Of a stretch of 9,005 nucleotides of DNA, positions 1-6,197 are shown piece by piece. The DNA lies in IMG/VR virus record IMGVR_UViG_2734482785_000011, positions 1 to 9,005 of that record. The stretch is one strand, 5' to 3'. Every line of letters begins with the position of its first letter. The stretch's first letter is position 1. A program made the position numbers and the translations under genes. Below the pieces are notes generated by a model that was given only the letters and a program-made list of their open reading frames with translations, ran no database searches and had not been told where the DNA came from. The DNA is from a virus (lineage: Duplodnaviria > Heunggongvirae > Uroviricota > Caudoviricetes).

Positions 1-473
1 CGATAGGTTGCAACACCAGTTGCACGTTGAGTCATGAACACGTCGGTTTGAGTCCAAGTGTCACCACCGAATTCTGGCAGGACGTCAGTCCACGCACCGA
101 TGTCGTATGCTACACCGTAGTTACGGCCGTAATCGATGGAGCCGTAGTCACCGAATTTCAGGCCAGCGAAGGCAAGACGGGTTTTGTCTTTGGAGGAACC
201 CTGAGATTCAGCGCGGTTGCCTTTGAATTCATATTCCCACTGACCGAAACCAGTCAGTTGATCGTTGATTTGGGTTTCACCTTTGAAGCCAAGACGAGCA
301 TAAGTTTTGTCACCATCGTGCTTATCGTTAGAGGAGAAGTAGTGCTCGGCATTAACTTTTCCATACAGATCCAGTTTGTTGCTGTCTTTGTTATAAATCT
401 CTGCTGCCTGAGCAGACATCGCCATTAATACTGACGCAGCTACAGCAGAGATTGCCACTGTTAATTTTTTCAT
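1..473 (-). CDS. nmpC: General porin of the OmpC/OmpF/PhoE family, N-terminal part only (start codon at 473-471, gene continues past position 1); NmpC/OmpD/Lc-type prophage porin
   Basis: Reverse-complement translation from the ATG at 473-471 gives [48 protein letters not shown]...[25 protein letters not shown]...[59 protein letters not shown]: signal peptide followed by the AEIYNKD mature N-terminus and conserved porin blocks. AGGA Shine-Dalgarno about 8 nt upstream on the minus strand. Symbol assigned from recalled similarity to NmpC, not from a search. Confidence 0.85.
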
Positions 474-716
474 CGTGAATCCTTAGTCCTTTTCGGAACT
501 ATTATTAAAAAATATTGTCACTGCGGCCTAAATATACATCTAATCGGTATGGCTATTTCAAGATACGGGGTTTATTTAATGATTTAGAGTGTGATCAAGA
601 TCTCGTTTATGCGTGGTAATAATTATTGGAGATGTTTTTGTAATGAGAGATGTGTTTCTGAAATGCAATGAAAAGTTATTATTTTTGTATTTTATAATGT
701 AAATTTTGCGTACTGG

Positions 717-730
717 TTTACGTACGTAAA
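717..730. promoter_or_regulatory. Perfect 14-bp palindrome TTTACGTACGTAAA in the divergent porin/small-ORF intergenic region; candidate operator for a dimeric regulator
   Basis: Sequence is its own reverse complement; it lies in a 450 bp AT-rich region between divergently oriented genes, next to a TATAAT hexamer at 693-698. Confidence 0.3.
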
Positions 731-923
731 AATTTAAATATGATGTTAAGAGTGGTCACTTTGCCACACAGCTTAAACCAGCCGCCAAGCGGGGTTTTTT
801 ATGCCCGAAAAGCGGCGCAGTACGTTAAACGCGCTGGTGGTTGCGAATACAGGTCTTTCAGCTTGATGGCTTTTTCGACAAGAGTTATTGGTATGTCACG
901 TTAACCAGAAAAGGGAAAAAGAC

Positions 924-1121
924 ATGCTAAAACAGCAGGATATGACCGAAACTGCCAGAGTGGTGTTTAATGAATTAAGCGTCACCGAACCGGCGACCGT
1001 CGGGGAAATTGCGCAGAATACTTACCTTTCACGCGAACGCTGCCAGTTAATACTGACCCAGCTTGTTATGGCGGGTCTGGCAGATTATCAGTTCGGTTGT
1101 TACAGACGCCTTCCTCAGTGA
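924..1121 (+). CDS. Small hypothetical protein (65 aa) with winged-helix/HTH-like character; alternative TTG start at 888
   Basis: ORF track 888..1121; the ATG at 924 is preceded by AGGGA about 7 nt upstream. Translation MLKQQDMTETARVVFNELSVTEPATVGEIAQNTYLSRERCQLILTQLVMAGLADY has an HTH-like segment (TVGEIAQNTYLSRERCQLIL). The stop codon sits inside a terminator hairpin. Confidence 0.5.
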   Translation: MLKQQDMTETARVVFNELSVTEPATVGEIAQNTYLSRERCQLILTQLVMAGLADYQFGCYRRLPQ

Positions 1122-1131
1122 AGGCTTTTTT
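1108..1131 (+). terminator. Rho-independent terminator (stem GCCTTC/GAAGGC, 6-nt loop, T6 tract) ending the small ORF transcript
   Basis: gccttc ctcagt gaaggc tttttt read directly; it overlaps the TGA stop at 1119-1121. Confidence 0.6.
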
Positions 1132-1271
1132 ATTTGTGGTAATGGGCGGCTGGTGGGTGTTAGCGGCACCTGCCAGCCATCTGCTCATGCGTTGGGGTCA
1201 CAAGCAAACCTCAGGCCCATCTGCTTTGCGCAAAAGCGGAATGAGCCTATCAGAGAAGTGCTTATTGATCT

Positions 1272-2318
1272 ATGGCTAATACTGTAAAAATATCCAGTTG
1301 TGAGTTAATCAACGCTGATTGCCTGGAATTTATCCAGACCTTACCGGAAAACTCTGTCGATCTGATAGTCACGGACCCGCCATACTTTAAAGTGAAGCCC
1401 GAGGGCTGGGATAACCAGTGGAAGGGCGACGATGATTATCTGAAATGGCTGGACCAGTGTCTGGCGCAGTTCTGGCGGGTACTGAAGCCTGCCGGAAGTC
1501 TCTACCTGTTCTGTGGTCATCGCCTGGCATCTGATATCGAAATCATGATGCGTGAGCGCTTTAATGTGCTGAACCACATTATCTGGGCGAAGCCGTCCGG
1601 ACGCTGGAACGGGTGCAACAAGGAAAGCCTTCGGGCGTATTTTCCGGCAACAGAACGCATTCTGTTTGCTGAACATTATCAGGGGCCATATCAGCCCAAA
1701 AATGACGGCTACGCGGCAAAGGGGCGCGAGCTTAAGCAGCACATCATGGCCCCGCTGATTTCTTACTTCCGTGATGCGCGTGAATCACTGGGGATAACGT
1801 CGAAACAGATAGCAGAAGCCACCGGAAAGAAAAACATGGCTTCGCACTGGTTTGGTACCAGTCAGTGGCAGTTACCGAACGAAGCTGATTACAGAAAACT
1901 GCAGGCGTTGTTTGCGCGTATTGCAGCAGAAAAACATCAACGCGGGGAACTGGAAAAGCCACACCACCAGCTGGTCAGCATATATAGTGAACTGAACCGG
2001 CAATATGCCAGCCTGCTGGATGAGTACAAATCTCTGCGGCGTTATTTTTCCGTATCGGCTGCCGTTCCGTATACGGATGTCTGGACGCACAAGCCTGTGC
2101 CGTATTACCCCGGCAAACATCCCTGTGAGAAACCGGCGGATATGTTGCGTCAGATAATTACCGCCAGCAGTCGTCCGGGAGATTTGGTGGCTGATTTTTT
2201 TATGGGGTCAGGCTCAACAATAAAAGCGGCACTTTCACTGGGACGCTGTGCGATTGGCGTGGAGCTGGAAGAAGAGAGATTTAATCAGACTGTGAACGAA
2301 ATAAAAAACTGCTGTTAA
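1272..2318 (+). CDS. DNA methyltransferase, beta-class amino-MTase (probably N6-adenine; N4-cytosine not excluded), 348 aa, no restriction partner in the window
   Basis: DPPY catalytic motif (motif IV) near the N-terminus (LIVTDPPYF) and an FxGxG AdoMet-binding motif (motif I) near the C-terminus (DFFMGSGST). The IV-before-I order defines the beta class. Single ATG start at 1272 (in-frame TGA stop at 1266-1268 just upstream); weak Shine-Dalgarno. Confidence 0.9.
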   Translation: MANTVKISSCELINADCLEFIQTLPENSVDLIVTDPPYFKVKPEGWDNQWKGDDDYLKWLDQCLAQFWRVLKPAGSLYLFCGHRLASDIEIMMRERFNVLNHIIWAKPSGRWNGCNKESLRAYFPATERILFAEHYQGPYQPKNDGYAAKGRELKQHIMAPLISYFRDARESLGITSKQIAEATGKKNMASHWFGTSQWQLPNEADYRKLQALFARIAAEKHQRGELEKPHHQLVSIYSELNRQYASLLDEYKSLRRYFSVSAAVPYTDVWTHKPVPYYPGKHPCEKPADMLRQIITASSRPGDLVADFFMGSGSTIKAALSLGRCAIGVELEEERFNQTVNEIKNCC

Positions 2319-2832
2319 TTTTTATGTTGGTGTTTTCTTTATTCTATAAAAACACAAAACATATACTTATATTTGCAGTAATTGACGCTATTTTTTGTTG
2401 AAAAAATATCCGGGCTTATTAATATCCATTCCCGGTTCCGAGGGAGAATAGGGAAATAATGCATACGTGGTCGTTTTGTTCCTCCTGAGGAACCACTGAC
2501 TAAGCTTTTTATCGTTGTGGCACTGGCGCATTGTTTTTGGCGAGGAAACAGGAGCACATGCTCATTCCGGGCTGTTATGGCCTCAGTGCTTATTTTTGGC
2601 CATCAGAATGGCGCATTGTCGAAAAGAAGTAGCAGGATTTAGCGTTGAGAGGCTGATGATGCGTCATTCTGATGCTGTTGCAGATATAATTTGAGGTGTA
2701 TCCCAGTGCGGGAGTGGCCGGGAATATTTTACGCCGAAGGTCACAACATATTGCTTATTGAGGCAGGTGATATGTTTCGGGAGGCACCCGACACCTCAAA
2801 CCTTATAATGATAGCGTGTTCTTTTAGTCATT

Positions 2833-2857
2833 AACCGCCGTGTCAGGCGGTTTTTTT
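2833..2857 (+). terminator. Strong rho-independent terminator (stem AACCGCC/GGCGGTT, loop GTGTCA, T7 tract); candidate late-operon terminator (tR'-like) or 3' end of an untranslated leader/sRNA
   Basis: aaccgcc gtgtca ggcggtt ttttt read directly. No plus-strand ORF of 60 aa or more in the 500 bp upstream. Confidence 0.6.
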
Positions 2858-3094
2858 ACGCAGCGGTATAAAAATATCATATTTAATAATTTCCAGAGAA
2901 ATAAAATTGTTTGTATATTGTCGGGCATGTGTTACTCGTGCGTGAAAAGTTCGCAAAAAATAAGAACAAAAAGATAAAGTTACATAACTTGACTTGATGC
3001 GTTATTGCTCCTGCATCATTTAACCGTATTATCAAAGGCGGTTCTGAGGGGGGGCACCTGTTCACCGATGATATTGATTCCCTGAAGAACCAAT

Positions 3095-3170
<76 letters not shown>

Positions 3171-3173
3171 TAT

Positions 3174-3248
<75 letters not shown>

Positions 3249-3609
3249 ACAGTAGACGAAATCTGGTTATATTAGGCACTGCACATTGATATGTGGGGCG
3301 TTTTCCTGATTCCTTACCGCGTCCTGTTCTGTAATATGTGATGCAGGTTACAGTCCAGTGCCATTTTTTTACAATAATGGCATGGTGCATTGTCGGTGGA
3401 GATTTTGTATTTCCTGGCAGGGGCCGATGATGCACTATCCCTGTGTTGTAAAATAATACCGCAGAGGTGTTCCTCAGTGCGAGGTGGAGGGAAGAGTCGG
3501 TTTAGCGAGAAAACACAGTACCTGTTATCAGGTCAGATATTTCGGGAGTCCTCCCCTGACACCTTTGTTTTATTACAATAAAAATACCCTATTTTCTGCA
3601 TTGACCAGC

Positions 3610-3630
3610 CGCCACCCAGGCGTTTTTTTT
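3610..3630 (+). terminator. Weak terminator-like hairpin (CGCC/GGCG, 5-nt loop) followed by a T8 tract
   Basis: cgcc accca ggcg tttttttt read directly; the short stem makes this the weakest of the stacked terminators. Confidence 0.35.
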
Positions 3631-3652
3631 ATTCACAATCCTGTTTCTTATG

Positions 3653-3673
3653 GCTCGCTACGGCGAGCTTTTT
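3653..3673 (+). terminator. Rho-independent terminator (stem GCTCGC/GCGAGC, loop TACG, T5 tract)
   Basis: gctcgc tacg gcgagc ttttt read directly. Confidence 0.5.
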
Positions 3674-3760
3674 CATATCTGCGTCACGTCCGGCGTACAT
3701 CGCATCAGATAACACCACACAAAAGGCATCTGCGGGTGTCTTTGACGGGGTGTTTTTTAC

Positions 3761-3782
3761 GGGCCGCTGGTGGCCCTTTTTT
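3761..3782 (+). terminator. Rho-independent terminator (stem GGGCC/GGCCC, loop GCTGGT, T6 tract) about 20 nt upstream of the holin-like gene start
   Basis: gggcc gctggt ggccc tttttt read directly; followed by AGGAG and the ATG at 3802. Confidence 0.6.
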
Positions 3783-3801
3783 ATTTACAGGAGAAAAAAG
3801 T

Positions 3802-4194
3802 ATGTCTGAACCCTTGTCCGGTTCCGGCACGGCTGCGGCGCTCGGCGGGGCGACGGTATTCGGGCTGTTTACCGGAACGGATTTCGGGATTGTGTTTGGT
3901 GCGTTCGCCGGAGCGTTATTTGTGGCAACGATGCCGCAGCAGCTTTCAGCCTGGCGTGTGGCGGCACATTTTCTGGTGTCGTTCATTGTCGGTGTGCTGG
4001 GCGCAGAGGTTCTGGCATCCTGGCTGGTAAAGCATACAGGGTTTGACGGTGCGCCTGTCGACGCACTGTGTGCAGTGCTGGTGTCAGTGGTGTCGGTGAA
4101 GATTCTCTCGTTCATCCACCAGCAGGATATTGCATCACTGGTGTCTGGCCTGTTCTCCCGCCTGCGGGGTGGAGGAGGCGGCAATGTTAAGTAA
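3802..4194 (+). CDS. Putative holin (130 aa, 3-4 predicted transmembrane helices), first gene of the lysis cassette
   Basis: ATG at 3802 preceded by AGGAG at an appropriate spacing. The ORF-track entry 3484..4194 is the same frame with a spurious N-terminal extension. Product MSEPLSGSGTAAALGGATVFGLFTG...VLGAEVLASWLV...ALCAVLVSVVSVKILSF is strongly hydrophobic with a short charged C-terminus, and sits immediately upstream of an endolysin. Confidence 0.6.
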   Translation: MSEPLSGSGTAAALGGATVFGLFTGTDFGIVFGAFAGALFVATMPQQLSAWRVAAHFLVSFIVGVLGAEVLASWLVKHTGFDGAPVDALCAVLVSVVSVKILSFIHQQDIASLVSGLFSRLRGGGGGNVK

Positions 4195-5846: not shown

Positions 5847-6197
5847 ATGCCATCACGAATCCCACACGCCTGCCGTAAGCGTGGATGTGCAGGTACAACC
5901 ACAGACAGTTCTGGTTACTGCGATAAACATCGTGGCGAAGGATGGGTACAGCATCAACGCGGACTGAGCCGCCACCAGCGTGGCTATGGCTCGAAATGGG
6001 ATGCCATACGTGCGCGCATACTGAAGCGTGATAATCATCTGTGTCAGAACTGCCTGCGCAATGGGATAGCCGTTGAAGCCAGAACTGTGGACCACATCAT
6101 CCCGAAAGCGCATGGTGGAACAGACGCAGACAGTAACCTGCAGAGTCTGTGCTGGCCCTGCCATAAAGCAAAAACAGCGCGCGAACGCATCAATTGA
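5847..6197 (+). CDS. HNH homing-type endonuclease (116 aa), the packaging-associated HNH protein of HK97-like phages
   Basis: GAGGAG Shine-Dalgarno 9 nt upstream of the ATG at 5847. HNH motif ...TVDHIIPKAHGGTDADSNLQSLCWPCHKAKT plus N-terminal Cys-rich segment CRKRGCAGTTTDSSGYCDKH. Sits immediately upstream of the terminase genes. Confidence 0.9.
   Translation: MPSRIPHACRKRGCAGTTTDSSGYCDKHRGEGWVQHQRGLSRHQRGYGSKWDAIRARILKRDNHLCQNCLRNGIAVEARTVDHIIPKAHGGTDADSNLQSLCWPCHKAKTARERIN

Follow-up and report, generated by a model that had tools for sequence, protein, structure and literature searches.

A conserved structured RNA leader abutting an M.EcoGII-type methyltransferase gene in a phiP27-like prophage

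When would a prophage make a DNA methyltransferase that has no restriction partner, and what would hold the enzyme in check until then? The gene that raises this question belongs to the late region of a lambdoid, phiP27-like prophage carried on a stretch of 9,005 bases (hereafter the window), which is the complete Escherichia coli contig JUCF01000127.1. An earlier note, made from the sequence alone, had described its product as a solitary, phage-borne beta-class amino-methyltransferase encoded behind a small helix-turn-helix (HTH)-like open reading frame (ORF). Judged by its sequence, the enzyme itself is an ordinary M.EcoGII-family orphan and alone adds little: thousands of E. coli prophages have homologues, and M.EcoGII is already sold as a reagent. 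The unexpected result is a conserved structured leader that travels with this family: enzymes in wide use for chromatin footprinting and as RNA-methylation tools naturally carry such a leader and a partner gene, which here encodes a 65-aa winged-helix (wH) protein.

The leader of the methyltransferase mRNA

The gap between the wH and methyltransferase genes is nearly constant in length (about 154–157 nt in most loci) and is better conserved than either protein from Escherichia to Gilliamella. It holds an apparently undescribed structured RNA that is conserved, confined to the sense strand, and almost always abutting the start of an M.EcoGII-type gene (Table 1); the whole leader, including a first hairpin, spans ~165 nt (1108–1271). 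The covariance model of its 140-nt core (R1) matched the window at 1134–1274, on the plus strand only, with 127 bits, and likewise matched only the sense strand, with the ATG as its end point, at 39 of the 49 genome loci and 76 of the 80 metagenome loci, as well as before the M.EcoGII-like gene of locus L132. Sense matches scored 54–172 bits versus at most 18 bits for the antisense strand. Viral contigs contain at least 117 copies of a 20-nt core string, and the methyltransferase start lies 128–134 nt downstream in 110 of the 114 evaluable; the other four are recombination remnants in which the leader is cut inside or just after helix P1. The leader also persists in ten loci that have no wH gene within 5 kb.

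Compensatory change marks the leader as a folded element. Its helices pair in 94%–96% of alignment cells, versus 26%–51% after a shift of the partners by one to three columns; in eleven pairs both sides have changed, and none of 500 shuffles reached the observed values. One P2 pair occurs as C-G, U-A, A-U, and U-G, 7 of the 12 pairs of P1 show covariation within the divergent set, and the non-palindromic helices P0, P2, and P3 covary as well; a handful of divergent lineages contributes part of this signal, and alignments fitted to a model are biased in its favor. G-U wobbles occur on the plus strand only (in 10–12 and 30 sequences at three P1 pairs), and the fold energy of the plus strand is −76.3 kcal/mol (z = −4.2) versus −60.1 kcal/mol (z = −2.3) for the minus strand, which together indicate an RNA read in the mRNA sense and not a DNA palindrome. 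Across 38 distinct sequences, the motif AUGGGC is invariant and has two mutually exclusive partners, GCCCA (99.5%) and GCUCAU (98.6% compatible). The pairing of loop GGUCA with UGAUC holds in 87% of cells and is present in the minimum-energy fold.

Database and literature searches returned no earlier description of this element. Scanned against Rfam 15, the whole window gave nothing at E ≤ 1 for 1100–1290, and focused scans to E = 10 (of 1100–1290 or a relative) gave chance-level matches to miRNA and CRISPR families and a 14-bit, terminator-only piece of STnc100; identity with a known RNA was rejected on these scans. Full-text literature searches with 15-nt leader strings found no match, a search for phiP27 L24 returned nothing relevant, and a transcriptome paper (PMC11125564) holds no data on the methyltransferase gene. 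Published descriptions of the M.EcoGII family (PMC5778455, PMC11551740, PMC6602927) mention neither the upstream wH gene nor the leader.

Several other readings of the element were discarded. Single-base indels in the alignment rule out coding on either strand, and with it the small ORFs at 1097–1279(+), 1063–1287(+), and 1066–1188(−); the apparent "HQPP" conservation arises from the P1 stem, read as its reverse complement. Were the element a promoter, the conserved TGTGGAAAT would put a G at the critical −11 position, and as a Q-utilization site the element would not be expected unchanged behind four different antiterminator families, which is how it is found. One further helix, 1214–1220/1243–1250 enclosing P3, is 94% paired but shows uncompensated disruptions, and it was kept only within an alternative fold.

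The 12-bp inverted repeat of P1 has the geometry of a dimeric operator, the wH gene usually adjoins the element, and the structural neighbors of the wH protein include DNA-binding IclR and MarR domains, all of which would suit a DNA-level site at 1134–1271, such as a palindromic operator for wH. We nonetheless consider such a site, or an independent or antisense small RNA in its place, improbable. The element is kept in the ten loci without a nearby wH gene, on the opposite strand, or if the site were a DNA palindrome, its G-U wobbles would become A-C mismatches, and three of its covarying helices are not palindromic. The model scores 127–172 bits in the sense direction versus at most 18 in the other, no good −10 element lies in front, and the element almost always ends at the methyltransferase AUG.

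The first hairpin, at 1108–1135, bears on where the transcript is divided. The earlier note had taken it (as 1108–1131) for the small ORF's own terminator and had concluded that the two genes are probably separate transcription units. Hairpin and terminator-like tail are indeed present in the window, as a 6-bp stem followed by TTTTTTATTT, whereas the separation into two units did not hold up. In 77 of the 88 distinct upstream sequences, loci without wH included, a structurally conserved hairpin with differing stem sequences lies 5–8 nt upstream of the leader core, and relatives keep this hairpin with a tail that is usually TTTCTGCTG. Since it is conserved before the core even where wH is missing, and since its U-tract is generally poor, the hairpin is no evidence for separate units and we treat it as the first helix of the methyltransferase leader, which possibly acts as an attenuator.

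Table 1. Features of the methyltransferase cassette and its surroundings in the window
Feature	Position	Strand	Details and basis
Conserved structured RNA leader of the methyltransferase mRNA	1134–1271	+	Alignments, RNAalifold, covariation, covariance model R1
Leader helix P0	1143–1147 with 1215–1219	+	UGGGC:GCCCA closing helix, encloses P1 and P2
Leader helix P1	1148–1159 with 1167–1178	+	12-bp hairpin
Leader helix P2	1182–1185 with 1203–1206	+	Short helix
Leader helix P3	1223–1227 with 1233–1237	+	Hairpin after the part enclosed by P0
Alternative pairing	1142–1147 with 1183–1188	+	AUGGGC:GCUCAU
Loop GGUCA complementary to UGAUC	1196–1200 with 1266–1270	+	Just before the methyltransferase AUG
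Hairpin and U-run	1108–1135	+	Stem 1108–1113/1120–1125, GCCTTC-CTCAGT-GAAGGC then TTTTTTATTT; overlaps the wH stop codon
Beta-class N6-adenine DNA methyltransferase, M.EcoGII clade, 348 aa	1272–2318	+	DPPY 35–38, FMGSG 310–314; no recognizable Shine-Dalgarno sequence
Winged-helix protein, 65 aa, phiP27 L23 homologue, PHROG 331	924–1121	+	ORF, PHROG, AlphaFold2
5' untranslated region of the wH gene	802–923	+	Nearly invariant across six upstream contexts (alignment)
Late-promoter (pR')-like block	712–774	+	TTTACG 717–722, 16-nt spacer, TATGAT 739–744; homology and position
tR'-like hairpin and T-run	775–801	+	Homologous to the CCCGCC-GCCT-GGCGGG-TTTTTTAT consensus; weaker window variant
OmpC/NmpC-like porin, 5' part	1–473	−	Start codon at 473, runs off the window; translation, Porin_1/Porin_4 matches
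tRNA-Thr(UGU) and tRNA-Gly(UCC)	3095–3248	+	ARAGORN

An M.EcoGII-type enzyme

The methyltransferase, an exact match to WP_047628516.1, carries motif IV (DPPY, from residue 35) N-terminal to motif I (FMGSG, from residue 310). This is the beta-class order that the earlier note had recognized, and it is borne out by a match to PF01555 (N6_N4_Mtase; E = 2.8e-44, 152 bits, cut-off 26.7) and by alignment of solved beta-class enzymes (M.RsrI, M1.MboII, CcrM, DpnA, and others) to both halves of the protein with E = 1e-12 to 1e-25. The two motifs are 271 residues apart, not roughly 190 as first estimated. The suggestion that the region between them carries target recognition survives for part of that region: residues ~115–281 have no alignment to solved beta-class methyltransferases, and the published M.EcoGII model, in which the Rossmann catalytic core is interrupted by a helical-bundle recognition domain, confines that domain to residues 160–237 only (PMC11551740). 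Our AlphaFold2 model is poor (average predicted local distance difference test score, pLDDT, 65.9, with very low confidence at 99–151 and 254–284); it places helices at 146–173, 177–184, 189–193, 204–223, and 231–254, and so suggests a helical recognition region at ~146–254.

Target and base had been considered unreadable from the sequence, a view that the comparison with M.EcoGII largely overturns. Aligned with the M.EcoGII sequence of PMC11551740 (Suppl. Table S1), the window protein is identical at 293 of 347 positions (84.4%) over the full length, with only two 1-residue gaps, and no indels interrupt the recognition region. The protein shares 87.9% identity with Anc291, a reconstructed ancestor, and 72.1% with SUPREM (M.EcoGII versus SUPREM, 69.7%), both of them active enzymes (PMC11551740), and these identities place it inside the sequence space of enzymes active on generic substrates. 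M.EcoGII methylates adenine to N6-methyladenine (m6A) whatever the sequence context, on RNA as well as on single- and double-stranded DNA (PMC5778455). The nearest enzyme with a confirmed site specificity, M.PflMI, is only ~27% identical to M.EcoGII (PMC11551740), a level well below the similarity of the window protein to M.EcoGII, recognition region included. Given 84% identity that extends through the recognition domain, the question of specificity is largely answered: the enzyme is an M.EcoGII/M.EcoGI orthologue and is predicted to form m6A without regard to sequence context.

Like M.EcoGII and M.EcoGI from prophages of E. coli O104:H4 C227-11 (348–349 aa; Murray et al. 2018, PMC5778455), the window enzyme has the beta-class motif order, is prophage-borne, and has no cognate endonuclease, and in L132 an M.EcoGII-like gene is likewise preceded by this wH gene and leader; the window enzyme differs from M.EcoGII by ~54 substitutions and a divergent C-terminal tail. 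Close homologues of M.EcoGII were noted in phage 1720a-02 and other enterobacterial phages (PMC5778455), and the window DNA matches phage 1720a-02 at 86%. M.EcoGII is deleterious when constitutively expressed and is not expressed in the C227-11 lysogen (PMC5778455), M.EcoGI and M.EcoGII both give no methylation in lysogens (PMC5778455; PMC6602927), and homologues in Shiga toxin-producing E. coli, classed as "nonspecific", gave no methylation signal in methylomes of lysogens (PMC6602927). By analogy with these homologues, non-specific m6A activity, toxicity, and silence in the lysogen would be expected of the window enzyme too. Searches of NCBIfam found no family above cut-off for the methyltransferase or wH, and PADLOC matched only its generic "MTase_II" and "oMTase" models, with nothing meaningful for wH; membership in a defense system was rejected, only these generic models having been hit.

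Might the central region instead encode a defined target, so that the orphan protects against particular restriction enzymes or acts epigenetically? The NCBI cluster is named "site-specific DNA-methyltransferase", the central domain is helical and HTH-like (in the model, and in PMC11551740, Table S5), and ~15 of 80 recognition-region residues (about 19%) differ from M.EcoGII. The automatic name is generic, however, M.EcoGII and the ancestors that bracket the window enzyme were assayed on generic DNA and RNA and described as non-site-specific (PMC5778455, PMC11551740), the closest confirmed site-specific enzyme is as distant as stated above, and the recognition region has no indels relative to M.EcoGII. 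A sequence-specific enzyme thus seems unlikely.

The gene is mosaic at its 3' end. DNA similarity to phiP27 and Stx (Shiga toxin) phages ends at ~2269–2270, some 50 nt before the stop codon, which indicates that the last ~16 codons (...NEIKNCC) come from a different source and that a mosaic junction lies inside the gene. Elsewhere, the prophage locus L343 (3501–4301) has wH and the leader but only the first 151 methyltransferase codons, beside genes of the C5-methyltransferase, HEPN, and GmrSD types.

Position behind a late-promoter-like block

The 73-kb sister contig L252 carries an identical methyltransferase gene and sets it in the map of a prophage: CI-like repressor, replication genes, PF06530 antiterminator Q, porin (on the minus strand), wH, methyltransferase, holins, endolysin, HNH, terminase, and head genes. 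Ten diverse contexts share a constant order of antiterminator, 0–3 cargo genes, wH, methyltransferase, and lysis genes, with antiterminators from four Pfam families (PF06530, PF06323, PF03589, and DUF1133). The closest phage, phiP27 (NC_003356; an Stx2e phage), matches window positions 803–2269 at 93.6% DNA identity. Its pair is annotated L23–L24, with 100% (L23) and 92% (L24) protein identity and the same spacing and leader; phiP27 differs in having a GIY-YIG gene, not a reverse porin, between Q and the cassette, and tRNA-Ile/Arg and stx2e downstream where the window has tRNA-Thr/Gly.

Just upstream of wH, the site at 717–744 is the only sigma-70-like match that the promoter scan gave ahead of the module. 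Promoter-like matches in 400–3900 are not above chance (7 versus 5.4 expected), and no independent promoter was found there. The surrounding block (712–799) recurs in 85 phage records; it follows Q and a reverse porin and precedes a holin gene by 140 nt in phage ev017, and in an Stx1a phage three reverse-oriented genes come ahead of it and stx1A follows. All six contexts that were aligned have a conserved hairpin-plus-T7 terminator as the 5' edge of the cassette, followed by ~125 nearly invariant bases up to the wH start, and the sequence 5' of this tR'-like terminator varies with the type of antiterminator. Where Q is adjacent (L338 and L342), the 110 bases from the Q stop codon to the terminator align with lambda pR' (GGTAAATTTG....AACGATGGG), and the match takes in TAAATT, the −10 element, and the AACGAT element. 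The hairpin folds at −15.5 kcal/mol (z = −0.7) in the window and −24 kcal/mol (z = −2.9) in phiP27, and the terminator scan did not flag the window copy. Direct alignment of the DNA 3' of Q between L252 and phiP27 was uninformative because the Q alleles differ.

With this pR'-tR'-like block just upstream, and homologous blocks fronting lysis genes or stx1 elsewhere, 712–801 is probably the late promoter pR' with its terminator tR', and wH and the methyltransferase gene are most likely the first two genes of a Q-dependent late operon and not an autonomous moron. The moron position that had been proposed is correct as far as location goes, between Q and the lysis genes and behind the porin; what is not supported is the autonomous unit, the only promoter-like site lying in a block of the late-promoter type. 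Terminator-like sites in 400–3900 number 9, versus 3.7 expected, and several of them fall between the methyltransferase and lysis genes, as expected where only antiterminated polymerase reads. The arrangement resembles lambda pR'-qut-tR' (6S RNA) and the short pR' transcripts of Stx phages in its terminator after a pR'-like promoter. It differs from lambda in that the promoter block is of another type, paired with a PF06530-type Q, with a reverse porin between, and is assigned by homology and position. The position of the gene is thereby made explicit: it would be first cargo behind pR'-tR', in the same cassette behind four unrelated antiterminator families. Such a position would explain why M.EcoGII-type enzymes are silent in lysogens and would fit an arming of progeny DNA.

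A true moron, with wH and perhaps a low level of methyltransferase expressed from the prophage and affecting the expression of host or prophage genes in the lysogen, seems to us slightly less likely still than the alternatives weighed above. The region between Q and the lysis genes is classical cargo territory, the window tR' hairpin is weak, and wH has a good Shine-Dalgarno sequence and is followed by a hairpin and U-run, so that wH alone might be made by read-through from pR'. Set against this, no independent promoter stands out from the chance number of promoter-like matches, the cassette lies behind pR'-tR' in every context examined, and M.EcoGI and M.EcoGII leave lysogens unmethylated and are deleterious when constitutively expressed (PMC5778455; PMC6602927). 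The same silence of the characterized homologues in lysogens (PMC5778455; PMC6602927) runs counter to the suggestion that the enzyme may alter host gene expression.

The small gene that precedes the leader is real, on the evidence of its match to PHROG 331 (E = 1.4e-37), and has a Shine-Dalgarno sequence, AAGGGA, at 911–916. Homologues number in the hundreds in Enterobacterales, and the exact 65-aa protein is extremely common. Its description as HTH-like is sharpened by an AlphaFold2 model (pLDDT 91.2) with the H1-H2-H3-beta-hairpin topology of a winged helix, while a Pfam match to TrmB stayed below threshold (18 bits, threshold 25.6) and the Pfam scan gave no Xre/HTH_3 match. Foldseek neighbors (E ~1e-3) are IclR, MarR/OhrR, O-methyltransferase N-terminal, and SelB domains, the last binding selenocysteine insertion sequence (SECIS) RNA, which amounts to a generic fold. 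The gene accompanies the methyltransferase in essentially all E. coli phage loci. Among 49 genome loci, 37 have wH immediately upstream, as do all 67 viral loci with at least 3 kb of upstream sequence and 111 of 115 evaluable pattern-selected occurrences (117 in all, 2 at contig edges). An m6A reader resembling the DpnI winged helix was considered and dropped, there being no DpnI-type structure among the 50 listed Protein Data Bank neighbors. M.EcoGII is active in vitro without wH.

The claim that the methyltransferase is solitary is upheld. The window has no restriction endonuclease gene, and the check beyond its ends that had been proposed found none within 10 kb on either side in L252, nor in ten further genomic contexts of wH; the gene is prophage-borne without a cognate endonuclease in all of these. 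An HNH gene (5847–6197) stands in the order HNH, small terminase subunit (TerS), large terminase subunit (TerL), as annotated in phiP27 beside the cos site, an order typical of packaging and not of restriction. Least tenable, and very improbable in our view, is a classical restriction-modification (R-M) system with wH as controller (C) protein and the endonuclease outside the window: a small gene of DNA-binding type does lie directly upstream, and phiP27 has a GIY-YIG nuclease-family gene (L22) just upstream of L23–L24, but the window is a complete contig, in L252 the pair lies between Q plus porin and the lysis genes, the ten further contexts have no conserved nuclease neighbor, no L22 homologue stands beside the cassette in 133 methyltransferase-centered loci (L003–L135), the small protein is not of the Xre type, and the cassette is located inside a phage late operon. 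We therefore rejected it on genomic context. Type II R-M C proteins resemble wH in being small, of DNA-binding fold, encoded upstream of a modification gene, and able to time expression; they differ in having an Xre-type HTH (~80 aa), acting on C-boxes, and usually preceding a co-transcribed endonuclease gene, whereas this locus has a winged helix, no endonuclease, and ten relatives that keep the methyltransferase leader with no wH gene within 5 kb.

Proposed mechanism and neighboring features

For the window phage we propose late expression, an anti-restriction role, and regulation by the leader, a joint reading that we hold to be probable: an M.EcoGII-type enzyme in a pR'-tR' late cassette would be silent in the lysogen and made late to protect progeny, with the leader gating its translation. 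Transcripts from pR' would stop at tR' in the lysogen, and any that leaked past would meet the second hairpin (1108–1135), keeping a toxic enzyme off; this predicted silence draws on the pR'-tR'-like block, the second hairpin, and the literature on M.EcoGI and M.EcoGII. After induction, Q-modified RNA polymerase would read through both hairpins and the methyltransferase would be made late. It would then heavily m6A-methylate the replicated phage DNA before packaging, which would shield progeny DNA from most adenine-sensitive restriction enzymes when it enters the next host. The leader probably limits or times translation, a tight gating of a toxic enzyme that is suggested by the lack of a Shine-Dalgarno sequence, by bases ahead of the AUG that pair with a conserved loop, and by an AUGGGC motif with two exclusive partners.

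Solitary phage m6A methyltransferases such as T4 Dam, P1 Dmt, and VT2-Sa/933W Dam are thought to protect phage DNA from restriction. Unlike the M.EcoGII clade, which has no sequence requirement, these Dam-type enzymes are GATC-specific and belong to a different family; M.EcoVT2Dam is listed in PMC6602927. Hia5, Hin1523, and Nma1821 (alpha class; Drozdz et al. 2012, cited in PMC5778455) share with the clade a phage origin and adenine methylation of very low specificity, and they differ from the window methyltransferase in having FxGxG first and a different architecture.

A number of points weigh against the joint reading. Type IV enzymes that depend on m6A, Mrr among them, should attack fully m6A-modified DNA, a cost for which the joint reading does not account. 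For this type of Q, the pR'-tR' assignment rests on position and homology and not on a mapped start site, the window tR' hairpin is weak enough (z = −0.7) that wH might be transcribed in the lysogen, and the second hairpin, with a poor U-tract in most relatives, may not terminate. The pairing next to the start codon is only 87% conserved, and some divergent members lack it. The leader is present without wH in ten loci, and eight loci from Photorhabdus/Xenorhabdus have wH with no more than a short P1-like hairpin, so leader and wH are separable. For the enzyme, the ~15 of 80 recognition residues unlike M.EcoGII leave room for some context preference, the low pLDDT of the structural model (65.9) makes the agreement in recognition-domain fold only suggestive, and the M.EcoGII sequence was machine-read from a PDF, obvious reading errors included.

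More tentatively, and as a possibility that we favor clearly less than the joint reading, the leader may represent a new class of cis-regulatory RNA for M.EcoGII-type genes, a three-way-junction switch in which AUGGGC pairs with either GCCCA or GCUCAU. Pairing with GCCCA would close the junction and leave the start region free or held in a pseudoknot; pairing with GCUCAU would release GGUCA-CAAGC to occlude the start, which has no Shine-Dalgarno sequence. The effector could be a metabolite such as S-adenosylmethionine (SAM) or S-adenosylhomocysteine (SAH). It could also be wH, whose modeled fold has RNA-hairpin-binding SelB domains among its neighbors, or the methyltransferase itself, given that a clade enzyme methylates RNA; methylation of leader adenines could then form an m6A autoregulatory feedback loop. 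The leader resembles translational riboswitches (e.g., SAM-responsive ones) in its multi-helix junction, invariant joining bases, exclusive pairings, and sequestered initiation region. It matches no Rfam 15 family, the SAM and SAH classes included, and the likeness is one of layout only. If the leader does control translation, it would show how a toxic, indiscriminate nucleic-acid modifier is kept in check and would give a practical means of controlling M.EcoGII expression; it could also constitute a regulatory RNA class of its own.

Around the cassette, the porin part comprises the N-terminal 157 codons with a signal peptide, and relatives have this gene annotated as porin OmpC; by its location it is probably a moron between Q and the late promoter pR', and so not one inserted 3' of pR'. 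A reverse-oriented porin cargo gene is also present in phage ev017 and in prophages of enterotoxigenic E. coli. Apart from the two tRNAs at 3095–3248, ARAGORN found no RNA over the window, and these tRNAs occupy the slot that tRNA-Ile and tRNA-Arg (ileZ, argO) fill ahead of stx2e in phiP27; no toxin gene follows in the window, where two holins, a GH108 endolysin, HNH, and the small and large terminase subunits lie 3' of the tRNAs. Terminator-like hairpins with T-runs stand at 3652–3669 and 3761–3776 (+), just 5' of the first holin gene (3802). A divergent copy of the STnc100 small RNA family lies at 2664–2863 (+) and ends at a strong terminator (2833–2852), its score of 38 bits (E = 1.4e-5) being under the gathering score of 47; copies with full scores (132–135 bits), one or two per locus, occur 3' of the methyltransferase gene and tRNAs in the related prophages L338 and L341. 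Outside the window, phiP27 and the sister contig both have matches to the isrK and C4 antisense RNA families in their anti-repressor region (L001, 2921–3109; L252, 3059–3247).

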